Positions 8,954 through 22,567 of a DNA stretch of 64,000 nt are shown one piece after another (position 1 is the first letter of the stretch; each line of letters begins with the position of its first letter). A program made the position numbers and the translations under genes. This stretch comes from an uncultured Acidobacteriota bacterium (GTDB taxonomy: Bacteria; Acidobacteriota; JAQAZP01), in assembly GCA_963836075.1 (NCBI GenBank), contig CAWIIB010000001.1:832001-896000 (forward strand), written 5' to 3'. The notes under the pieces were generated by a model that was given only the letters and a program-made list of their open reading frames with translations, did no database searches and was not told the DNA's origin.

Positions 8954-10324
8954 ATGAACGAACCCCGACACCAGACACCTGACCCGGATCTGCTGCGGCG
9001 GATTTTGGCCCGCGCGTGCGCCGGCCGGCGGTACAGTGAAGCGGACCTCTTTGCCGAGCGGAAGAGCACCCTGAGGATCGACCTGCTGGACGGCCGGGTG
9101 ATCGGTCTTGTTTCGGGCCTGGAGGAGGGCGCCGCGGTGCGCACCGCCGGGCCGGCCGGCTGCCGCTTCGCACACAGCGGAGGGTTGGACGAAGCGTCGC
9201 TGTGCCGTCTGGCCACCGGCGAGGCCGTGGACAGTTCCGACGGAGCGGCTCATCCCGGACTGGAACCGTCGGTGCCGGAATCGCTGGTGCAGGCCCTGGG
9301 CCATGTCGGCGCCGAGGCCGGGCGGGGCGAACCGCCGTGCCAACGGGTGGAGGTATCCTGCTATGCCGCATGCCAGCAGGTCTGGATCCTTGACGAGAGC
9401 GGACACCTGGCCATGGACCAGCGGTCGGCCTTCCGGGTCAGCGCCCGGGTCCTGACTGCTGACCGCTGGGGCGCGGCCCATCACGGCGGCGCATGGACCG
9501 ACACGATCTTCGACCTCCGGCAGGCGCGCCATCTGGCCCGCCACGCCCGATCCGCCGCCCTGACCGCCGCCGGCGCCAGGCCGGTCCCGGCAGGAGAACA
9601 GACCGTAGTGCTGGCCGCCGGCTCGGGCGGTATCCTGCTGCACGAGGCCTGCGGGCACCTGCTGGAGGCCGACTACATCATCCCCGGGCTCTCCCCCTAT
9701 GCCGGCCGGCTGGGCCAGGCAGTGGCCTCCCCGCTGGTCAGCGCCGTGGATGACCCCACGCTGCCCGATCTCCCGGCGTCGCAGATGGTTGACGACGAAG
9801 GGGTGCCCACAACACGCAAGCTGCTGCTGGATCAGGGGATCATCGCCGCCTTTCTCTGCGGGCGCCGCGAAGCCGGCGGCGGCGCCGGGTTCCAGCCCGG
9901 AAACGGCCGCCGGCGCTCGTTCCGCCACCTGCCGCTGCCGCGGATGAGCAACACCATGATCCTTTCCGGTGAGACGCCCCCGAAGGAGATCATCCGCCGC
10001 ACCGGCAGCGGGATCTACGCCGCGCGCCTCTCCGCCGGTCAGGCCGACCCGGCCAGCGGCCGCTTCCGCTTCACCGTGGCCCAGGGCAGGCTCATCGAAG
10101 ACGGAAAACTGACCTGGCCACTGGACGGGGCGGTGATCAGCGGAACCGGCCCGGCGGCGCTGTCCGCGGTGGACCTGGTGGGAAACGATGCCCGGGTTGA
10201 CGCCACGGCCGCCGGCTGCACCAAGGCGGGGCAGACCATTCCGGTTTCGGTGGGCCACCCCACCCTGCGGATCCGCACCCTGACGGTGGAGCCCCTGGGC
10301 TCGACCAGGGAGGGCCAGCCATGA
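8954..10324 (+). CDS. tldD: TldD family metalloprotease subunit
   Basis: LLHEACGHLLEAD, VDDEG, PRMSNT, GCTKAGQTIPV..GHPT. Confidence 0.9.
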   Translation: MNEPRHQTPDPDLLRRILARACAGRRYSEADLFAERKSTLRIDLLDGRVIGLVSGLEEGAAVRTAGPAGCRFAHSGGLDEASLCRLATGEAVDSSDGAAHPGLEPSVPESLVQALGHVGAEAGRGEPPCQRVEVSCYAACQQVWILDESGHLAMDQRSAFRVSARVLTADRWGAAHHGGAWTDTIFDLRQARHLARHARSAALTAAGARPVPAGEQTVVLAAGSGGILLHEACGHLLEADYIIPGLSPYAGRLGQAVASPLVSAVDDPTLPDLPASQMVDDEGVPTTRKLLLDQGIIAAFLCGRREAGGGAGFQPGNGRRRSFRHLPLPRMSNTMILSGETPPKEIIRRTGSGIYAARLSAGQADPASGRFRFTVAQGRLIEDGKLTWPLDGAVISGTGPAALSAVDLVGNDARVDATAAGCTKAGQTIPVSVGHPTLRIRTLTVEPLGSTREGQP

Positions 10325-11662
10325 GCGCATTGACAATGACCGACGCCCTCCCCCTGCTGGACCATTGGCCCAAGGCCGGCGGCGCCGCGGAACTGCTGCT
10401 CAAGCAGAGCCGCAGCCGTCTGTGGAGCATGGCCGGAGGGATCATGGACACCGCCAGGGGCCGGGAGCGGGGGTCAGCGGTGAGGGTGGTGCTGCCGGAC
10501 GGACGCTGCAGCCTGGTCACCGCCGCCTCACCCTCTTTCGCCCGGCTGACCCGCGACCTGGATCGGGCACGCCTGCTGGCCGAGCTCACCGCCCCTGACC
10601 CGCACCTGACCCTTCCCGGACCGGCGCCGGATGCGGGCCTCCAGCCACTCCCCGCCACCGGCGGTTCGCCGGCGGAACTGTTCGGTGAGGATGCCGCCCG
10701 GGCCCTGCTGGACCGTCTGCTGGAGCCGGATACAAGGTGTGCCAGGGTGGTGAAAGCCTGGGTCCGCCAGGCTGAGGTGGGTACCGAGCTGGTGAACAGC
10801 ACCGGGTTCACCGGCAGCCACCGGGGGATATTGACCAGCCTCGGCGTGCTGCTGGACGGCGGCGGAGAGGAGCCGCTGGTTCACGAAGAACTGCTCACCG
10901 CCGGAGCGGTGCCGGCCCCCGATCGCTTTCTGGAAACCGCACGGTCCCGGGCCGCCGGAATATTCGGCGCCCGGGGCACACCTCCCGGACCCACCGGGTC
11001 GCTGGTGCTGACCCCGGAGGCTGCAGGTCCCGCTGCTGGCAGCCCTGGGCACCCGGTTTGTTCCCCTGCCCTGTTTGACGGAAGGCCCGGGTCTGCCGCC
11101 GCCGGGAACCCGGGTGGCGCCGGCGGGCATCACCCTGGCGGATGACGGCCGCCATCCCGGCGGGCCGCGCAGTGCCCCCTTTGATGGTGAAGGAACAGCG
11201 ACAGACACCACGGTCCTGGTCCGGGACGGCATCCTGCAATCCCTGGTGCACGACCGCCGGTCCGCCTCCCGGTCCGGCACCCGCAGCACCGGAAACGCGG
11301 TGCGCGACAGCTACCGCCAGGGCCCGGCTCCCGGCCTGACCACCCTGGTGCTCCACCCCCGGCCGGACCTCACCGAAGACGACCTGCTGGGGGACATCTC
11401 CCGGGGCCTCTACGCGGTGGTTGCCGCCCCGCCGGACCCGGACCGGCTGGAGGCCGGGATCTTCTCCATCCGCTTCCGGGGACGGCTGATCAACAGAGGC
11501 AGGCTCCTCTCTCCCACCGGCCCGGTGGCCTTCCGGCTTCCGCTGGACGATCTCCTCCCCCGGCTCCGGGCGGCTGCCGGCCGACCGAGATTGATCGCCC
11601 TGGACGGCGGCGTGGAAACACCGCTGCTGCGGCTGGACGGCGTACGGCTTGACTCCTGCTGA
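10321..11662 (+). CDS. pmbA: PmbA/TldE family subunit (frameshift near 11030)
   Basis: ATGA overlap with tldD. NSTG, PFDGEG, VRDGIL and STGNA motifs across two frames. Confidence 0.75.
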
Positions 11663-12408: not shown

Positions 12409-14202
12409 TCACCTGCTTCGAAAAACGGTGATGCCCCAGTCAGCGCCGCGCTGCCGGGGTGGGTCGGCATTCCAATCGTTGAAGGAGTGCGAGTCGTCGG
12501 ACACGTAGCGCAGCCGGTAGGAGCCGGATGGCAGATTTATTTCACCGCGCCACTCCCGGTTCTTCTTCGCCCCACCGGCGTGGCTGGAGATGTCGTAGTT
12601 CATGGTCCAGACCCGCTCGCCGTTGTCCGCCCGTTCGATCCACCCGTAGTCGTACATCTCGGACTGGGAACCTTCTCCCTGGCAGACCACCAGGACGGTT
12701 GCCGGACGGCTCAATTCAAAGGTGTCCTTCTCGCTGGCATTGTTCCCCGGGGCGGCGATCATCCCCAGCAGGCCGGAGGAACGTTCCGTGGTGTAGGCGA
12801 CATAGGAGCCCGGGGCCGCCTCTTCCCCGACCCAGTACAGCGTGATACCCGCGCGGTCGGCATCCCAGGGTGGAGTGGCATTCCAGCCGTCTCCGCCGGA
12901 GTGGCTGTCGTCGGTGACAAAGGTGACCACGTATTCACCGGGGGCCAGCGTCACCACTCCCTCGTTCATCCGGTTCTTGCGGCCACCGCCGGCCCAGACC
13001 GCCTGCTGCGCGTCCATCGTCCAGACCACCTCGCCGGTGCCGCAGTCCCTGACCCAGCCCCAGTCGTAGAGCGTGTCATCATCCCCTTCACCGATCCCGT
13101 AAAACAGCACCGGTCCGCCCCGTCTGAGCCGCACCATCCGGGTGGAGACGGTGTTGTTCCTCGGGCGCCAGATGGCGGCGATCACCCGGTCCGCGGGAAA
13201 GGCGGGGAGATCGCCGCGGTGGGCCGCCAAAGCCCCACCGCTATCACCGGGGACCAGCCGGACAGTAATTCCCCAGAAATCGGGATCGCGGGGCGGCGGC
13301 TGGTTCCAGCCGCCCCAGTGGTGCGATTCGTCGGTCACATACCAGACTTCGTAACGGCCGGGCTCGAGGGTCATCCGCACCCGGGCCAGGCGGTTCTTCC
13401 GTGCCCCCCCGGCGTGGGTCGTCCCGTCGAATTCCATCTTCCAGGGCCGCGAACGGTCGGCAGTGCGCACCAGCCAGCCGCGGTCGAACAGCTTGCCTTT
13501 GTTTCCTTCGCCCAGGGCATAAATCTCCACTTCGGCGGGTTCCAGGAGTTCGAAGGCTCTGGTGGCAAACGCCTCGCCACCCACCCGCCGAATGCTGGCC
13601 AGTGTCCCCGGCCCCGGTCGCTCTTCGGCAGCGAGGCGAACCGGGATGTCGCCGTGCCCGGCGCCGCCGGGTGTGGTGACCCGCACGCCCCACTGGGCCT
13701 GGTTTGACTGGCGCTCGAAATCCTTCCCCTCCAGCATCACACTGTCGCCGAACAGCCCCTTGATCAGCCCGGACAGGGCCTCGGAGTCCACCCCGCGAAG
13801 CGAGATCGACGGCCCTGCTTTCACCGTGGAGAAGTAGATCTCATACTGCCCGGCCTCCAGGTTCAGCGAGGTGTCGCAATTGAACCCGTATTTGCAGCTC
13901 TGGACACACTGCTCCCTGTCCAGGGCCCAGACGGTCTCCCTGGTGGCCGCGTCCAGCAGCCAGCAGTCGGTGTACGGATGGTCGTTGAGCCAAGCCCCCA
14001 CCACCTGCAGCCGCACCTCCCGGGGACTGCCCAACCGGAAGGCCCCGGAGGTCACCTCCCCGCGCTCCGACCCGTCCAGCCGTGCGAGGTAGTGCGGCGC
14101 GGCGGAAGCCGTCCGGACCGCCGGCAGCAGCATGGCCAGCGCGAACAGCGCGGCCAGAACGCCCGGCGCTCTCCTGATGGTGATGGTTTCCGGATCCAGC
14201 AT
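12409..14202 (-). CDS. Secreted protein with four tandem beta-rich repeat domains
   Basis: Signal peptide. Repeated GEG..D.GW...W.M...AGG.[RK]KNR...L..G.Y...D[DE]SH...WN..PP...GIT. Confidence 0.85.
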   Translation of the reverse strand: MLDPETITIRRAPGVLAALFALAMLLPAVRTASAAPHYLARLDGSERGEVTSGAFRLGSPREVRLQVVGAWLNDHPYTDCWLLDAATRETVWALDREQCVQSCKYGFNCDTSLNLEAGQYEIYFSTVKAGPSISLRGVDSEALSGLIKGLFGDSVMLEGKDFERQSNQAQWGVRVTTPGGAGHGDIPVRLAAEERPGPGTLASIRRVGGEAFATRAFELLEPAEVEIYALGEGNKGKLFDRGWLVRTADRSRPWKMEFDGTTHAGGARKNRLARVRMTLEPGRYEVWYVTDESHHWGGWNQPPPRDPDFWGITVRLVPGDSGGALAAHRGDLPAFPADRVIAAIWRPRNNTVSTRMVRLRRGGPVLFYGIGEGDDDTLYDWGWVRDCGTGEVVWTMDAQQAVWAGGGRKNRMNEGVVTLAPGEYVVTFVTDDSHSGGDGWNATPPWDADRAGITLYWVGEEAAPGSYVAYTTERSSGLLGMIAAPGNNASEKDTFELSRPATVLVVCQGEGSQSEMYDYGWIERADNGERVWTMNYDISSHAGGAKKNREWRGEINLPSGSYRLRYVSDDSHSFNDWNADPPRQRGADWGITVFRSR

Positions 14203-14291: not shown

Positions 14292-15674
14292 CTACAGATA
14301 GCCCAGGCTGGCCAGCCGCGCTTCCAGCTCGGGGTCCGCGGTGTGCGGAGCGGATGCCTCACCGGCCACGGTGGGTCGGGGCAGCATCCGCGACGGCAGC
14401 TTCCGCCGCAGCTCTTCCAGGCGCCGCGGGTTTTCCCGGCTGAGATCGGTCAGCTCCTGCGGGTCGTCCTCGAGGCAGTGCAACCGGGACGTCCCGTCCC
14501 CGGCCAGGACCAGCTTCCAGCCACCTCCGCGGACCATGGCCAGGGCCTGCCCCGGAACGGCTTCTCCGGGATAGCGCCGCCGCAACGCGGCGTTCACCGG
14601 CTCGGTGTACTGGGCCAGCGCCCATGGCCGCCCCGGAGGCACAGCGTCCCCCGGCAGCAGACCGCGGCGTTCCGGAAATCTGCGGAGGGCCTGGTGCGGC
14701 CCCTCCAGACGCTCCACGAGGGAGGGAAAGAGGTCCAGCGGCTGGAACTGGTCCCCCACCACCGCACCGCTTTCCAGTACTCCGGGCCAGTTGACCAGCA
14801 GGGGCACCCGTACCAGCGTGTCGGAGAGCGAGAATGCGTGGTCCATCATCCCCTGCTCCCCCAGGTGTTCCCCATGGTCGGAGGTGACCACGGAGAGCTG
14901 TCCGTGGGGGCGACCGGAACCGGCCACAAGCTCCAGCACCCGGCCCAGCGCCGCATCCATCCAGGAGAGGGCCCCGTCATACAGCGCACCCAGAATCTCG
15001 AAACCGCGGCGGTCCACCTGCATCCGGCCGCCGAAAAGGGCTGCGGCATCCTGGCTGACACCGCGGAGCTCTCCGTCCGTGGCGCCGATCCTCCGGAGAA
15101 AGGGCCGGGCGTACCGCTCCGGGGGAAAGTACGGCAGGTGCGTGTCCACGAAATGAAGGTAGAGAAAAAACGGCTCCGTTGACCTGAACGCCCGGCGGAG
15201 CAGCTGTTCCGCCGCCGCGGCCACCATTCCCGCCGAATCCTTCAGCGGGAGCACGCCCGCTGCACCGCCCGCCTGGGCTCCGGCCGGGACAACCTGCGGC
15301 GCGACTTCCTCCAGCCGGTGGAATCCCCGGTGCAGCCCGGTGTGCCGGCCGACGAATGCGCTGTTCGCCGATACGCCGAGGGTGCGGTATCCCATACGCT
15401 GCAGCCAGACCGGCAGCGTATCCAGGTCTTCGGAGAGCCGCGGCGCTCCGAAGTGGGCGCCGTGGTCCGCGGGATAGAGCCCGGTGAACAGCGACGCCAC
15501 ACTCTCCAGGGTCCAGCAGGAGGTGGCGATGGCCTGCTGGAAGCGCAGCCCCCCGGCGGCCAGGCGGTCCAGCGACGGCGTCACTGCACCGCCCCGGCCA
15601 TAGCAGCCGAGGCGGTCGGCACGTGCGGCGTCGAGCACCACCAACAGGATGTCGGGCCGCGGAGCGGTTCCCAT
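14292..15674 (-). CDS. Sulfatase/alkaline-phosphatase superfamily hydrolase
   Basis: PDILLVVLDAARADRL, SLFTGLYP, DTHLPY, TSDHGEHLGE, C-terminal RLASLGYL. Confidence 0.9.
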   Translation of the reverse strand: MGTAPRPDILLVVLDAARADRLGCYGRGGAVTPSLDRLAAGGLRFQQAIATSCWTLESVASLFTGLYPADHGAHFGAPRLSEDLDTLPVWLQRMGYRTLGVSANSAFVGRHTGLHRGFHRLEEVAPQVVPAGAQAGGAAGVLPLKDSAGMVAAAAEQLLRRAFRSTEPFFLYLHFVDTHLPYFPPERYARPFLRRIGATDGELRGVSQDAAALFGGRMQVDRRGFEILGALYDGALSWMDAALGRVLELVAGSGRPHGQLSVVTSDHGEHLGEQGMMDHAFSLSDTLVRVPLLVNWPGVLESGAVVGDQFQPLDLFPSLVERLEGPHQALRRFPERRGLLPGDAVPPGRPWALAQYTEPVNAALRRRYPGEAVPGQALAMVRGGGWKLVLAGDGTSRLHCLEDDPQELTDLSRENPRRLEELRRKLPSRMLPRPTVAGEASAPHTADPELEARLASLGYL

Positions 15675-15813
15675 CAGCGTCCCCCCGATGGACTGAAGAT
15701 CAACGGTTCGGTGTGAACAGATACAGACGGATTCTAATTGGCGGGCGCAAACGAGGCAAGAAGAGCCGCAGCGGTGCCTCGGGGCACCGGGCGCAGTCCG
15801 GGAGTGTCGACAG

Positions 15814-16059
15814 TTAAACCAGGTCGGGGATCTCGTCCATGTCCGGATGCCACTGCGGGTTGCCCTGCTTGTTTCCGGGAGACATGGATTTCTGCTGGTT
15901 GGCCAGAATCTGCTGCTGCTGCTGAGCCTGCTGGAGGAGAACGGCTTCCATCTGGATGGAACGCTGATTCAGGGCTGAGATCTCCAACCGGTGTGTCACG
16001 TGGGCAATGGTGAAGTAGACCACCAGCAGGACGAGAATGAGTTTGTGGGTTTTTTTCAT
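15814..16059 (-). CDS. Small membrane-anchored or secreted Gln-rich protein
   Basis: MKKTHKLILVLLVVYF followed by QQAQQQQQILANQQ. GGAG upstream. Confidence 0.65.
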   Translation of the reverse strand: MKKTHKLILVLLVVYFTIAHVTHRLEISALNQRSIQMEAVLLQQAQQQQQILANQQKSMSPGNKQGNPQWHPDMDEIPDLV

Positions 16060-16138
16060 CGATAGAGCTCCATGATCCTGATCCTCCGAAAGACAACCTG
16101 GAACGTACCGCATCGGAGGCCGGCAGCTATCTGTTAGA

Positions 16139-16154
16139 TGCAAGTTGCAGGCCA
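16139..16154 (-). promoter_or_regulatory. Sigma54 -24/-12 promoter
   Basis: TGGCCTG-CAAC-TTGCA (GG-N10-GC), 80 nt upstream of the 16059 ATG. Confidence 0.6.
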
Positions 16155-16397
16155 CCCCCGGTTGCACATCAGGACTGGCTGAAATTTCGATATCGACCTG
16201 TCCGCGGGCAAAAAACAGGAGAGGCCAGCAATCAAGTGGGTAACTTTTTTCCACTTTTCGTCTCTTTTAATCCCTGATCCGTTTTCCCGGCGGGCGGCCC
16301 GATGTTGCCCCTGCGGCCGGAAACCGGTACCATGCACACCATGGACCCGGGAACCGGGCGACGTCGGTTCCGCAACAGATGGAGGAAAAGACCAGAA

Positions 16398-17534
16398 ATG
16401 GAGCCAGTTCTCGATACACGGCGGATCTACAGACTGTCCCTGGCCGGCCTGCTGGCCGTGCTGCTCAGCTTTACCTGGCTGACTTCCCCCTCGGTGGCCG
16501 AGGAGGAGGCCGCACCACCACGGATGGTGTTTTCGTCGGTGACCCACGATGCCGGCCAGGTGGAGCGGGGGGCGATGATCTCCCACCAGTTCACCTTTCG
16601 CAACACCGGCGGTTCGGATCTGGTGATCCTGAGCACCAAGGCCGGGTGAGGGTGCACGGTGACCGGGGACTACGACCGGGTCACCCCTCCTGGTCAGGAG
16701 GGGCGCATAACCGTCACACTGAACACGCAAAAATTCAACAAGCCGATCTCGAAAACCGTCACCATCACCACCAACGACCCGGCGTCGAAACGGGTGGTGT
16801 TGACCATGAAGGCCGCCGTTCGTTCGCCCCTGGAGATCAGGCCTGACGACCGGGCCGATTTCCGTGTCTACCACGGGGAGGGGGGCAGCCGGTTGCTGGG
16901 TCTGATTCTCCGTCAGGACACTGAAGCCAGGGTGGTGAGTATCCAGTCGAACAGCGAACTGTTCACCGTGAATTGGGGCCCCTGGTCCCCCTCCGAAAAC
17001 CCGTCCCCGCAGGAGCGGGAGATCTTTGCCGGGGCGGCCGGCAACTCCGCCGTCCGGCTGGAGATCGGTCTCAGTCCGGATGCCACCGTGGGCTACCACA
17101 GCGGGCGGATCACCATTTATCTCGACGGAACGGAGCAGAAGCAGCTGGAGATCAAGGCCCTGGCCCGGGTGATGGGCCGCATACACTTCACGCCCCAGTG
17201 GATCTACTTCGGCTCGGTAACCGCCGGTGAACCGCAGCAGGCCGAGCGGCTGCTGGAGGTCCGCGCCCACGGCGGGCTCCCCTTTACGGTCGGCGGGGTG
17301 GAATACCAGGGACTCCCGCTCCAGTGGGAGATCAAGCCGCTGGAGGAGGGCGCCGGCACCGACATTCTCTTCCGCTGGGACGGTTCCGAACCGGCGGGCA
17401 TCCACAAGGGCCGGGTGGTTATCCTGACCGACAACCCGGCCCAGCCCCGCATCGAAGTGCCGTTCAGCATCAACGTACTGGCCGCGGAACCTGAAAAGGA
17501 AGAGCCGGTGGACAACCGGCTGAAGAGGCGCTGA
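16398..17534 (+). CDS. Secreted DUF1573-like multi-Ig protein with in-frame TGA (candidate selenoprotein)
   Basis: Signal peptide, HQFTFRNTGGSDLVILSTKAG*GCT...PPGQEGRITV...KTVTITTNDP. ORFs 16302-16649 and 16659-17534 share one frame. Confidence 0.8.
16650..16703 (+). promoter_or_regulatory. SECIS-like stem-loop(s) directly after the in-frame TGA
   Basis: GGTGACC(GG)...(CC)G-GGTCACC hairpin at 16658-16685 with a G-initiated loop. Second hairpin CCCCTCCT-GGTC-AGGAGGGG at 16684-16703. Confidence 0.5.
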
Positions 17535-17538
17535 GTTC

Positions 17539-19476
17539 TCAGTCAGCGTGGATGGTGAAACTGCCGGCGGCGCTGTACTGGTCGCCGCTGGCGGTGCCGT
17601 CCAGCACGACCAGTTCCAGACCCATGGGACACTCCAGCAGCTGCGCGGGCATCTGGGCTGGGATCCGGATCGGCAGGTTGATCCGCCGTTCGTCGCCCGG
17701 CTGGATGCTGCCCGACCCGCGGCGGAAGCCGTTGACCCGGCTGCCGTCACAGCGGATCAGGTCGAGGCTGGCCTGGAAGGACTGCCGGGTATCCGAGATG
17801 TTGGCGATGGCCAGCTGGGTCCAGAGCTGTTCACCGGTGCTCACTTCCGCCTGGACCAGCAGGCCCACCTGGAAGACCTGAATCGTGCCTTCCCGGACCA
17901 CCGTCCAGCTCACCCGCTCGGTGAGCCGGCCGTCCGGATCGGCCAGCAACCAGGAATCGTGGAGGGTGACCACCGCCTCCAGAAGATGCTCTCCCGGAGC
18001 GACGGAGTCGGTCTGGAGCTGGTACTGGGTGCCATGGCCGTCGGCCAGCGGTGTCCCGTCCAGAGACCACTGCACGTCCACCACATCTGCCGCCGTCCGC
18101 ACCAGGAAGGACTGCACGGCGGTCTCCAGGATCACCTGCTGAGACGAAGGCTCCCGGGAGTCCACCGGCCCGGCGTAGTCAAAGATCTCCAGGGCCATGA
18201 TCTCGCGGCAGACCGGGTCGAACCCGCTGTCCAGCGACCGCATCAGGCAACTGTCCGCCGGGCGGAACTTGCCGTGGGCGTAATACTCGCATCCCTCGTT
18301 GATCCCCACCCCTTCGATACCCAGCCAGTGGTGCCACTTGAGCTGCTGGGCCGCCATGTCGAACCAGCCCATGGAGGTGCAGTTGGGAGCGGACGGTTCG
18401 GGTCCACTGTACGTGTCGTAGGGGTTCTGGTACTCGTCGGTGAGACCGCCGAAGCTGTGGCCGAACTCGTGCAGCATCAGCTGGTGGGCGCTGGACGAAC
18501 CGCCGGCAAAGACGGCGTAGGCACCGGCGCCACCGCCGTAGCGCGACGTGTTGACCAGCAGGATGATCGTGTCGTATTCAGGAACGGCCGCGGCCGCCTC
18601 GAGCACCAGGGAGGTCTGAGCGTAGAGCAGCTGCGGAACGCCGGCGTAGTTGAACGAGGAATTGAAGGCCGTGTCCACATAGACCGGGGGCGACTGGTCC
18701 GGCTGGTCGGTCCCCGACTGGCTGGAGACCACCTCGAGCTTGTGAATGTTGACAAAGGACGCGAAGCGGTTGAACGGCTCACTGCCCAGCAGACCGTCCA
18801 CCAGGTTGTCCACGTGGTCGGCAAAGAGACCCATTTCAAATTCGGTGTAACCGTCGCCCAGCACCAGGATGTCCAGACGGTTGGCCGGGTCACCGGTCTG
18901 ATACACCATTTCCGCCTGGGTGCCGGCAGTGGTGCGGCGGGACTGCCGTGTCCGGTCTTCGCTGAGCCCGATCTCCCGGCCATCCAGGACGGTGAGCGGG
19001 CCCCAGGGGTCGCCCGCCCGGGAGATTTCGATCCGCTGGCCGGGCCCCACCACTGGAACAACGACCGAAAACCGCTGGTCGTCTTCCAGTGAAGCAGGGC
19101 CGCCGGCCAGGGATCCGTCAACCACCGTATCGGCGTGAACGAGGAAGGGGTCGGCCAGGGGCCGGCGCAGGATCGCGTGGCCGCTGGCCTTGTCGATCAC
19201 GGTGATTTCCAGCGAACCACTGTCCGCTGCTGCAGCCGGCCCCCGGCGGGAGGATACCCGCTGCACCGAAGTGAGCTCGATGCCGTGGGGGCCGCTGCGG
19301 AAGACCAGCCGCTGGGCGGACCGGTCATCCATGGAGACGTCGTCAGCCATACACGGGGAAAAACCGAATGTGGTGGAAATGATGACCATGAGAAGAGCGG
19401 TGAACAGAACCCGGGGATACCTGGCATCGGATTTGATTACCGGGCGATGTGCGCTGATTCTGTTTCCCTTGCTCAT
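17539..19476 (-). CDS. Secreted M64 (IgA peptidase family) metallopeptidase with C-terminal domain
   Basis: NRLDILVLGDGYT, YGGG, HEFGHSFGGLTDEY, EGCEYY..GKFRP..CLMR. Confidence 0.9.
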   Translation of the reverse strand: MSKGNRISAHRPVIKSDARYPRVLFTALLMVIISTTFGFSPCMADDVSMDDRSAQRLVFRSGPHGIELTSVQRVSSRRGPAAAADSGSLEITVIDKASGHAILRRPLADPFLVHADTVVDGSLAGGPASLEDDQRFSVVVPVVGPGQRIEISRAGDPWGPLTVLDGREIGLSEDRTRQSRRTTAGTQAEMVYQTGDPANRLDILVLGDGYTEFEMGLFADHVDNLVDGLLGSEPFNRFASFVNIHKLEVVSSQSGTDQPDQSPPVYVDTAFNSSFNYAGVPQLLYAQTSLVLEAAAAVPEYDTIILLVNTSRYGGGAGAYAVFAGGSSSAHQLMLHEFGHSFGGLTDEYQNPYDTYSGPEPSAPNCTSMGWFDMAAQQLKWHHWLGIEGVGINEGCEYYAHGKFRPADSCLMRSLDSGFDPVCREIMALEIFDYAGPVDSREPSSQQVILETAVQSFLVRTAADVVDVQWSLDGTPLADGHGTQYQLQTDSVAPGEHLLEAVVTLHDSWLLADPDGRLTERVSWTVVREGTIQVFQVGLLVQAEVSTGEQLWTQLAIANISDTRQSFQASLDLIRCDGSRVNGFRRGSGSIQPGDERRINLPIRIPAQMPAQLLECPMGLELVVLDGTASGDQYSAAGSFTIHAD

Positions 19477-19801: not shown

Positions 19802-20223
19802 TTACTTGTCGAAGAACCCGAATTTGGACCCGATCCGCATCTTGTCCTGCAAATCCTGGAAATCTTCGTACTTGATGACCAGGGCGCAGAGCGATTCCAT
19901 CTCCTCGGAGAGACGTGGTCCCGGTCTTGTGGATGGCGATGATCGGCTTTCCCAGGGCACAGGCATAGCCGGCTTCGAAAAATGCCTGCCGCGAGGGGTA
20001 GGAGAACTCACCGATATAGTATTCCGCTGAGTTGAGACCCTCCAGCCGGTGCTGCATCTTTTCCGCCGAGTGCTCACCGCCCAGTTTCCCCCAGCCGTCC
20101 ACATCCCGCTTGGGCACGAACAGTTCCGTATCAGCATCTTCGAGGTAGTCAACCAATCGTTTCCACTTCCTGGCGCCCCAACTTGGGACCCGTACCCAGA
20201 TAGACCCGTTTTTTGCTCATCAT
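19802..20223 (-). CDS. Nucleoside 2-deoxyribosyltransferase-like small protein (frameshifts near 20153 and 19917)
   Basis: Reconstructed MMSKKRVYLG...IGEFSYPSRQAFFEAGYACALGKPIIAIHK...LVIKYEDFQDL. Confidence 0.65.
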
Positions 20224-20285
20224 CCTCCCCCCCCTTTTGATCGATTCCAGCCACTCATCAGTATACGCGCGGCATCGCCGCATGT

Positions 20286-21447
20286 TCACGGCGCCCGGTC
20301 CTTGCCGGACTGCCCCACCATCCCGGCCATGTGTCGGTCCAGCCCCAGGGAACGGACTTTGCCCGCCATGCGCCGGTGCTGCTCGAAGCCCAGCCTGATC
20401 AACTCGTCGATCAGTCCGGTGAAATCGAGCCCCGAGGCTTCCCACAGCATGGGGTACATGCTGATCGGCGTGAATCCGGGGATGGTGTTCACCTCGTTGA
20501 GCACCAGCGCCCCGGTCTCCTCGGACGAAAAAGAAGTCCACCCGGGCCATCCCCCGCACTCCCAGCGCCTGGAAGGCCTCGCCCGCAAGCCGGCGGACCT
20601 CGTCCGCCACCGGCTGCGGAATTTCCGCAGGCACTACGGTCTGCGAGGACTGGTCCAGGTACTTGGCCCGGTAATCGTAGAATGTGCCGCCGGGGATCAC
20701 TTCACCGGCCACCGAGACCCGGGGCCGCAGGTTTCCCAGCACGGCACACTCGATTTCCCGCCCGGACACCGCCTCCTCCACCAGCAGCTTGTCGTCGTAA
20801 CGGAAGGCCTCGTCCACCGCCGCCGCCAGCTGCTCCTCCCGGTCCACCCTGCTGATGCCGACACTGGAACCGCCGCGGGCCGGCTTGACGAAGCAGGGGA
20901 GCCCGATGTCCCGCAGCAGTGCAGCTCCCGTGCCGTCAGGGTCGGCTTTCCAGTGGTGCTCTTCCACGGCGCGCCAGGGGACCACCGGCAGCCCGCTGGA
21001 GGCGAGGACAATCTTGGTCCGGTCCTTGTCGAAGCAGAGTGCCGAGGCGTCCAGCGGTGGACCGGCGTATGGGAGCCCGGCCATTTCCAGCACCCCCTGC
21101 AGCGTCCCGTCCTCTCCCGGAGAACCGTGGATCATCGGCAGGACAAAATCGACGGCGATCCGTTCCGCCGACTCCCCGGCGCCGGCCTCCGCCAGCAGCC
21201 CGCCCGCGGCAGCATCGGCCGGCAGTGAGCATCGGCGCACACCGGGAGCCTCCCCGTCGCCCCGCGACATCATCTCCAGGGTTCCCGGACCGCAAAACCA
21301 GGCGCCGTCCCGGGAGATGCCGACCTCCAGCACCCGGTACCGCCCGCGGTTGATCTGTTCCAGCACGCCGCGGGCCGACACCAGGGAAACTTCATGCTCG
21401 GTTGATGGGCCGCCAAAAAGAATGGCCACGGTCGGTGTATCGCGCAT
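20286..21447 (-). CDS. ddl: D-alanine--D-alanine ligase (frameshift near 20525)
   Basis: [47 protein letters not shown], then [16 protein letters not shown] in the next frame. Confidence 0.95.
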
Positions 21448-21694
21448 GGTTCGGCTCCCGCTCGAGGGAAAACAGACACTGCCGGAGGACTTCTGTTCTT
21501 TGTGTGATTCTACCAGACATGGAATCCCTCCGATACCACAGAAAAGGGGTAAGACCGGGGAGCCCAGTTGCCGACTATTCAATAGAGGCCGCTGGGGTCC
21601 GGAAAGCGGTGGCGGAATACCGCCTTTTCCGGTGTGCCGTGACATTTTCACCCGGCACCCGCCCGGTCTGCTTCAGTACGAAACGGAGTCGTGC

Positions 21695-22567
21695 ATGACC
21701 GACAACTGGAAAGTGAACAAGAAGATTCTCATCGTCGATGACGACCGGAATTTCCGTGAATTCCTGCGTACCATGCTCACCGAGTGGGGCTATCCCGTGG
21801 TGGAAGCCGAGGACGGCATCAAAGCCATGCTGCGCATCATGGACGAGTCACCGGACCTGGTGCTGCTCGACCTGGCCATGCCCACCATCTCCGGACACCG
21901 GGTCACCGAGTTGATCAACAGTGTCCCCGACATCCGCAACATCCCGATCATCGTCATCAGCGGCAATGCCATGAAGTTCAAGGATCGCCTGGAGACCCTC
22001 GGTGCCGTGGCCGTCTTCTCCAAGCCGTTCGACCTGGAGGAGCTGCTGTCCGCCATCGATACGGTCCTCTCCGCCCCCACCGTGGAGATCATCGAGGAGA
22101 ACGCGGCCGAGGCTCCGTCCCCTTCTCCGCCCTCCGAAACAGTGGAAAGCCCGGTCCGGCCGGCTGGTCAAGACAAGCGGCGGGGCTGGTTTGCCCCGAT
22201 GCGCGACGGTTCACCGCAAAAGACCCTGGACCGCCTGCGCCGGGCGATACAGCAGAAACCGGACGACCTTGAGGCCGCCGGATATCTCAAGCTGGCAGAA
22301 ACCCTGATCGTCAGGAATTTCTTCAAACGGTTCGACGAACCGGGCGACGTGGTGCCCCGCCTGCACCCGCAGCTGGCCCAGGAGATCACGAGGTTCAGCC
22401 TCAACCCCGCCGAAGGGTTCCTGCTGTCACAGATGGACGGCCAGACCGACCTGGGCAGCCTCTTTTTTGTCAGCGGGATGAACCGTTTCCGCACCTGCCT
22501 GCTGCTGGAAAACCTGCTCCGCGAGGGTATCGTGCTGCTGGAGAACGGGAGGGCGCTCGATGAGTGA
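21695..22567 (+). CDS. Response regulator receiver fused to a helical/winged-helix C-terminal region
   Basis: ILIVDDD, LLDLAMP, SKPF. C-terminal LNPAEGFLLSQMDG..L..L. Confidence 0.85.
   Translation: MTDNWKVNKKILIVDDDRNFREFLRTMLTEWGYPVVEAEDGIKAMLRIMDESPDLVLLDLAMPTISGHRVTELINSVPDIRNIPIIVISGNAMKFKDRLETLGAVAVFSKPFDLEELLSAIDTVLSAPTVEIIEENAAEAPSPSPPSETVESPVRPAGQDKRRGWFAPMRDGSPQKTLDRLRRAIQQKPDDLEAAGYLKLAETLIVRNFFKRFDEPGDVVPRLHPQLAQEITRFSLNPAEGFLLSQMDGQTDLGSLFFVSGMNRFRTCLLLENLLREGIVLLENGRALDE

Follow-up and report, generated by a model that had tools for sequence, protein, structure and literature searches.

Can a TGA that stands inside a conserved motif belong to an intact gene, and if so, how would the cell read it? 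This question is raised by a locus on a stretch of 64,000 nucleotides, here called the window, from the genome of an uncultured Acidobacteriota bacterium (G000; 6.23 Mb in 10 contigs, 94.7% complete). From the letters alone, the initial annotation had proposed a secreted selenoprotein, in which a TGA takes the place of the first Cys in the CGC motif of a DUF1573 domain. The reading that we prefer, with a probability of about 0.92, is that of a single gene, which encodes an exported DUF1573 / OS_HP2 protein with three Ig-like domains and whose UGA at 16647-16649 would be decoded as selenocysteine (Sec, U).

One frame across the TGA

Translation of the plus strand gives a frame that is open throughout, apart from a single TGA at residue 84. 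When this TGA is read as U, the product has 378 residues, with ...STKAG-U84-G85-C86-TVTG... around the codon. The earlier claim of one continuous frame interrupted by the TGA only (STKAG-U-GCT) is thus confirmed for 16398-17534 (+). The start Met is common to both relatives from the same genus in the alignment, and residues 1-378 are matched in G001 and G002. The features of the gene, along with those of the related genes discussed below, are collected in Table 1.

The Pfam profile of DUF1573 (PF07610) runs straight through the codon. It matches residues 44-141 with 83.3 bits against a cut-off of 26.1, and its positions 2-98 of 98 are covered. The ORFs of translation table 11 split this profile, as positions 2-39 fall in 16302-16646 and positions 54-98 in 16659-17531. 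Since the domain spans the TGA, and each of these ORFs has only a part of the profile, the gene is continuous across the codon. An overlapping HYDIN/VesB-like Ig model also matches the product. On the opposite strand, the ORF at 16134-17750 has no family match in the profile search, and no Rfam match is found in 15000-18000 at E up to 1.

Table 1. Features of the window gene, and related genes elsewhere in genome G000
Feature	Position	Strand	Basis and remarks
Possible ribosome-binding site GGAGGA	16381..16386	+	From the letters only; 11 nt 5' of the ATG, a longish spacing
Whole predicted selenoprotein gene, 378 residues + TGA stop	16398..17534	+	ATG start to TGA
Predicted signal peptide, residues 1-34	16398..16499	+	Basic n-region, hydrophobic LSLAGLLAVLLSF, cleavage after SVA; by eye
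DUF1573 (PF07610) Ig-like domain with U84-G85-C86	16527..16820	+	Pfam; residues 44-141
TGA predicted to be read as selenocysteine, residue 84	16647..16649	+	Aligns with the first Cys of CGC in homologues
SECIS-type hairpin 1, 7 bp + 2 bp, 8-nt apical loop GACUACGA	16658..16685	+	Folding, covariation
Hairpin 2, CCUCCU / AGGAGG, loop GGUC	16686..16701	+	Abuts hairpin 1; over the PPGQEG codons
Second Ig-like beta-sandwich, residues about 145-259	16830..17174	+	AlphaFold2; Foldseek, HYDIN/ASH-type Ig repeats
Third Ig-like beta-sandwich, residues about 262-361	17181..17480	+	AlphaFold2, Foldseek
True stop codon, likewise TGA	17532..17534	+	Sequence
selD copy 1	L011 1501-2421 = G000:C4:17381-18301	+
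selD copy 2	L012 1501-2427 = G000:C9:892330-893256	-
TGA-type DUF1573 paralogue	L047 = G000:C1:411698-411991		TGA at the same column
TGA-type DUF1573 paralogue	L048/L050 = G000:C9:2365644-2365910		TGA at the same column; in tandem with a Cys-type copy

Every one of the three species of the genus retains the TGA, and their proteins are 77-83% identical. In the comparisons of these three species, dS ranges from 0.3 to 1.2. The dN/dS is 0.08-0.18 upstream of the TGA (mature residues 36-83) and 0.19-0.22 downstream of it (293-294 codons). Purifying selection, therefore, acts on both sides of the TGA, and in one frame.

Public databases give the gene in another shape. In a collection of 5.8 billion proteins, the product of the window gene is called as a protein of 291 aa. 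There, 11 relatives at 70-83% identity are also found, and all the calls, including that of the window, are 286-292 aa long with a query cover of 74-77%. As only this much of the query is covered, the calls begin after the TGA. This is how standard gene callers, which take no account of Sec at TGA, deal with such a codon: they start the product after it. These 11 relatives probably have the TGA too. What is missing from the public entries, for the window gene as for 11 or more close relatives, is the signal peptide, one half of DUF1573 and the active motif; re-annotation that allows for Sec would restore these N-terminally truncated proteins.

Near-identical or related sequence to 16300-17600 of the window occurs in freshwater, salt-marsh and marine sediment metagenomes of 13 studies (runs X1-X20). 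A 790-nt contig from run X2, a salt-marsh metagenome of a different study from X1, aligns with 16302-16912 without gaps and at about 95% identity, differing at 31 positions. Among the 28 differences listed of these 31, none falls in 16641-16704, which holds the TGA and both the hairpins described below; hence, the TGA is very probably kept in this contig, likely rather than proven in view of the 28 listed. The contigs of X1, the best-matching run, are identical to the window over the parts they cover and have a gap at 16525-16710, and the pieces from X8 are short or diverged. One 243-nt contig comes from an RNA-library run, X18, and spans 16779-17020, which does not imply transcription of the whole gene. 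A check of raw reads, in which TGC or TGT would tell against the proposal, had been advised at the outset; relatives and metagenome contigs give TGA in three species of the genus and, very probably, in the X2 contig.

Sec machinery and Sec/Cys alternation

The proposal of a Sec codon had been tied to the presence of selA, selB, selC and selD, and indeed the whole Sec machinery is present in G000. Profile search finds selA with 488.5 bits, and the SelB winged-helix domain is recognised with 70.7 bits within an open frame of 698 aa. The tRNA-Sec scores 74.7 bits, which is above the Rfam cut-off, and is also called by ARAGORN as tRNA-SeC with the anticodon TCA. Of selD there are two copies. Both have a single in-frame TGA, at ...SGG-U-AAK..., with a G+C-rich hairpin of 9 bp behind it, so that selenophosphate synthetase here is a selenoprotein too, and a duplicated one.

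A six-frame protein search of 61 genomes (G000 and 60 relatives) gives matches in 33 of them. The 75 matches comprise 23 with one in-frame TGA, two with one TAA and 50 with no stop. The domain was cut from 35 loci and then aligned, and one Cys form (L024, from genome G025) was left out of the counts. In this alignment, 14 distinct genes have the TGA exactly where CGC has its first Cys, and they represent 12 genomes and 9 taxonomic families (G000 with three paralogues, G001, G002, G003, G005, G017, G018, G019, G021, G023, G024 and G049). The same column holds TGC or TGT in 21 distinct homologues. Thus, the alternation of TGA with TGC or TGT, for which homologues were to be searched, is found at precisely the column of the TGA, and the claimed replacement of the first Cys is borne out by 14 TGA forms against 21 Cys forms.

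Three of the five DUF1573 copies in G000 carry the TGA. Tandem pairs of Sec/Cys or Cys/Cys paralogues are frequent in G000, G001, G002, G005, G018, G035 and G050. In a larger set of 301 genomes from the phylum, G025 and G151 among them, 188 have the DUF1573 domain. Among the best 150 matches listed from this set (327 further matches lie beyond them), 24, spread over 18 genomes, have one TGA, wherever in the match it falls. Across 18 full-length relatives, the invariant positions are N69, G71, L75, U/C84, G85, C86, P98, G99 and D127. The window protein shows the marks of the DUF1573 family, that is, the C-G-C motif, with U for its first Cys, together with the invariant N, G, PG and D.

Two hairpins behind the codon

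A hairpin just after the TGA, with a loop that begins with G at a distance of about 18 nt, was already part of the original proposal, and it is present. The seven bases GGTGACC at 16658-16664 pair with GGTCACC at 16679-16685, and two inner G-C pairs extend the stem. The apical loop lies at 16668-16675, its first base being the G that stands 18 nt after the TGA, and the local minimum free energy (MFE) is -18.3 kcal/mol. The published model of the bacterial SECIS element has a loop of 3-9 nt, a G in the first two loop positions, a spacing of 16-37 nt and an MFE of -7.5 or lower (PMC13188914, Fig. 2 legend). With its 8-nt loop and the values above, hairpin 1 of the window agrees with all four constraints. 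Additional to what had been noted earlier is hairpin 2, in which 16686-16691 pair with 16696-16701, and which follows hairpin 1 with no spacer.

Folding of a single sequence says little in such a G+C-rich stretch. When compared with shuffles of it, hairpin 1 alone has a z of -0.52, and 56 of 200 shuffles fold as well. As folding is no better than in the shuffles, the significance of the hairpins rests on the comparison of TGA forms with Cys forms. For positions +7..+40, the median MFE is -12.65 kcal/mol in the 14 TGA forms and -5.4 in the 21 Cys forms (Mann-Whitney p = 1.4e-6), and for +34..+58, which is the region of hairpin 2, it is -11.4 against -6.3 kcal/mol (p = 7.6e-5), both p-values being overstated because the TGA forms are akin to one another and three of them come from one genus. 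The two groups do not differ in G+C content (0.66 each).

A hairpin is present in each of the 14 TGA forms, with a loop of 3-8 nt, a distance of 17-21 nt from UGA to loop and an MFE of -8.1 to -18.9. In these minimum-energy hairpins, a G is present somewhere in the loop in 14 of 14, and in the first two loop positions in only 7 of 14. The TGA forms thus differ from the bacterial SECIS model in two respects: half of them are without the G in the first two loop positions, and they have an extra hairpin, specific to TGA forms, that joins on without a spacer. The 5' arm of hairpin 1 is found in at least three registers among them. Varied registers are usual for SECIS elements that are embedded in coding sequence. 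A single consensus structure for all 14 TGA forms was rejected for this reason, and covariation was counted only on the seven TGA genes that share a register.

In these seven genes, 90.5% of the cells of the two-hairpin structure are paired and five pairs are changed on both sides, as in one example where G-C becomes C-G through two synonymous Val codons. The covariation score was reached by 0 of 500 shuffles, and slid controls are 29-49% paired, figures to be read with the caveat that the sequences are related and that the tested structure was derived from those very sequences. The same columns in 11 Cys forms, taken in the same codon register, are 44.2% paired, which is no better than the slid controls. 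For helix 2 alone, 95.2% is paired in the seven TGA genes, with two compensatory pairs, against 39.4% in the Cys forms. Both the hairpins are specific to TGA forms.

Hairpin 2 may also leave its mark on the protein. The tripeptide PPG is present in 11 of 14 TGA forms, as compared to 2 of 21 Cys forms. Furthermore, the third, synonymous positions of the two Pro codons co-vary with the second positions of downstream codons (pairs 42-53 and 45-50). We tentatively suggest that the Sec signal of this DUF1573 branch may be a two-hairpin variant of the bacterial SECIS, in which helix 2, lying over the PPG-x-E/V-G codons next to the hairpin that SelB binds, would be needed for efficient insertion and would have shaped the protein. 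If this is true, an RNA signal would dictate residues of an exported protein, and it would do so in Acidobacteriota, a phylum whose selenoproteome is little described.

The way in which the codon would be decoded follows from established bacterial Sec insertion and from the tests on this gene. SelB, together with Sec-tRNA(Sec), would bind hairpin 1, the loop of which lies 18 nt after the UGA, and would deliver Sec to the ribosome at this codon. Hairpin 2, which is also under selection at the RNA level, may stabilise or extend the insertion signal.

The product, its possible role and its known kin

The first 34 residues look like a cleavable signal peptide of the Sec-translocon type, and AlphaFold2 gives a pLDDT of 47-66 for residues 1-40. 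Tat export was considered and rejected: the window protein reads TRRIYRL where the 83%-identical orthologue of G002 reads TQRIFKM, and as the twin arginine is absent from the latter, no Tat signal is called. Export through the Sec translocon thus appears likelier than through Tat.

The model from AlphaFold2, built on an alignment of 18 sequences, shows three beta-sandwich domains in tandem, with a pLDDT of 86.6 on average. Foldseek returns only generic matches to HYDIN/ASH, cadherin and titin Ig repeats. By sequence, the closest relative with a solved structure is the uncharacterised PDB entry 2qsv, a distant DUF1573-like Ig domain (E = 7.1e-6). It is without the CGC motif at the aligned position, and it is, therefore, uninformative on the active site. 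The U-G-C lies in a predicted turn between strands 75-82 and 87-92, Sec84 being the only selenol and Cys86 the only thiol of the protein. In the product, U84-G85-C86 would thus sit where two beta strands of the first Ig-like domain meet in a tight turn. If the pair is redox-active, the exposed Sec would act there as the attacking nucleophile, with Cys86 as the resolving residue, in the cell envelope.

The surroundings of the gene were also looked at. It is solitary: some 720 bp upstream lies a divergent sulfatase gene, and the gene downstream, for an M64 peptidase, is convergent. The stretch 15675-16397, between the sulfatase and the gene, is without a family-supported ORF. An all-against-all ORF comparison of 31 loci finds no neighbour that is shared beyond the genus. 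One cluster of neighbours from four loci was discounted, as it consists of antisense ORFs of the DUF1573 genes themselves. Another TGA-type paralogue of G000, p3, stands in tandem with a Cys-type copy (C-S-C), and next on that strand come a GT4 glycosyltransferase, a class-III aminotransferase and a GNAT protein; its surroundings hold no redox or metal clue.

Elsewhere in the window, at 20149-22567, the longest ORFs of a D-Ala-D-Ala ligase (-) and a response-regulator protein (+) overlap by about 800 bases. The Pfam domains start at residue 75 in the ligase ORF, and the receiver domain starts at residue 291 in the response-regulator ORF. Probably one or both ORFs have been extended too far at the start, or else the plus-strand ORF is spurious in its N-terminal part. 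Two further ORFs, of 597 aa at 12409-14202 (-) and of 274 aa at 10321-11145 (+), match no Pfam family at E up to 0.001.

Could the UGA simply terminate? The locus would then yield an 83-residue fragment, or two genes, of which the second has its real start at GTG 16659. The 291-aa public call and the 11 similar ones are on the side of this explanation, such calls being the work of the kind of standard software that is blind to Sec. Termination would, however, halve DUF1573 and deprive the downstream piece of the signal peptide and of the conserved motif, and it sits badly with purifying selection on both halves in one frame and with the TGA-specific hairpins after the codon. We regard it as very improbable. 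Still less is to be said for a recent nonsense mutation (a pseudogene), or for a Cys codon that was wrongly sequenced or assembled. Just one base separates TGC or TGT from TGA, and other lesions in the window had been reported in the initial annotation; nevertheless, the TGA persists in three species of the genus at dS of 0.3-1.2, with a downstream dN/dS of about 0.2, recurs at the same column in 12 genomes of 9 families and is very probably there in the X2 contig. This explanation is close to refuted. Nor is it credible, to any real extent, that UGA is read as Trp, Cys or Gly without Sec, be it by a near-cognate tRNA or through a genome-wide change of the code; nothing specific speaks for such a reading. 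The description of TGA as a normal stop elsewhere holds good, for it ends five of the seven Pfam-backed neighbouring ORFs, is internal in none of the seven and also terminates the gene itself. Moreover, the full Sec system is present, and a codon that aligns with Cys is the signature of Sec.

With Sec as the preferred reading of the codon, the chemistry of the motif has to be weighed. The thiol oxidase Erv2p reportedly has a Cys-Gly-Cys shuttle disulfide, and CGC peptides serve as mimics of PDI. These C-X-C redox motifs resemble the U-G-C of the window in having two chalcogens around a Gly in an exposed turn. The likeness is one of analogy only and not of homology, as the scaffold here is an Ig-like domain and Sec comes first. 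By this analogy, and by that with UxxC redox motifs, U-G-C may form a redox-active selenenylsulfide on an exported Ig-like scaffold, a role for which we see about an even chance. The redox role has to be argued from analogy since no conserved neighbour gene gives a functional clue. Its main rival accepts the insertion of Sec and holds that U-G-C binds a soft metal (Cu(I), Hg, Cd, Zn or Ni) and is no redox couple. Metal-linked selenoprotein families do stand in the same published tables as the DUF1573 family, namely, MerP/MerT-like proteins, a cation-transporting ATPase with UxxC, YHS and a putative mercuric reductase with UxxU. However, no metal-handling gene is found among the 10 neighbouring ORFs tested at the window locus or the 10 around p3, no neighbour is conserved over the 31 loci, and the protein has no further Cys. 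A metal site is possible, yet somewhat doubtful. Natural Sec/Cys pairs, including the tandem paralogues, are well suited to probing the role of U-G-C on an exported Ig-like domain.

Is the location of the Sec unusual, as the initial annotation had it for an exported protein? DsbA-like and DsbG-like selenoproteins are periplasmic. Both appear in the same published table as the DUF1573 family, so that precedents exist and this part of the earlier view needs correction.

The family, too, has been on record for some time. Table 2 of Zhang and Gladyshev (2007, PMC1976440) gives OS_HP2 as a new selenoprotein family in an Olavius symbiont metagenome, and a table row of the 2008 GOS study has it with pfam07610 and UxC (PMC2398784). 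The family first came to light in deltaproteobacterial worm symbionts and marine metagenomes. The tabulated families in two reviews of 2022 and 2026 (PMC9312934, PMC13188914) include a 'DUF1573 domain-containing protein', PF07610, with UGC, among the selenoproteins. No function of DUF1573 is given in the main texts matched by a full-text search for 'DUF1573'. Among the NCBIfam models, the best match of the window protein is NF041425, 'OS_HP2 family (seleno)protein', aligned over positions 5-97 of the 98 in the model. With 79 bits the protein stays under the curated cut-off of 100, as do all seven other TGA or Cys relatives tested (46.8-97.9 bits). With scores under 100 bits, the window protein and its relatives lie outside the curated NF041425 subfamily.

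The kind of selenoprotein described here has, therefore, been catalogued since 2007, and the window gene is a further member rather than a new class. It shares with the OS_HP2 family the same Pfam domain, the Sec at the first Cys of C-G-C, the hairpin just 3' of the UGA and the existence of Cys homologues. It differs in its 378 residues with three Ig-like domains, in its origin from Acidobacteriota and in the two abutting hairpins. What is new is a member that was unannotated, its build of three Ig domains and its two-hairpin signal. Thus, a selenoprotein family already known from worm symbionts and the sea gains a branch in Acidobacteriota that has three Ig-like domains, and a genome with three Sec paralogues.
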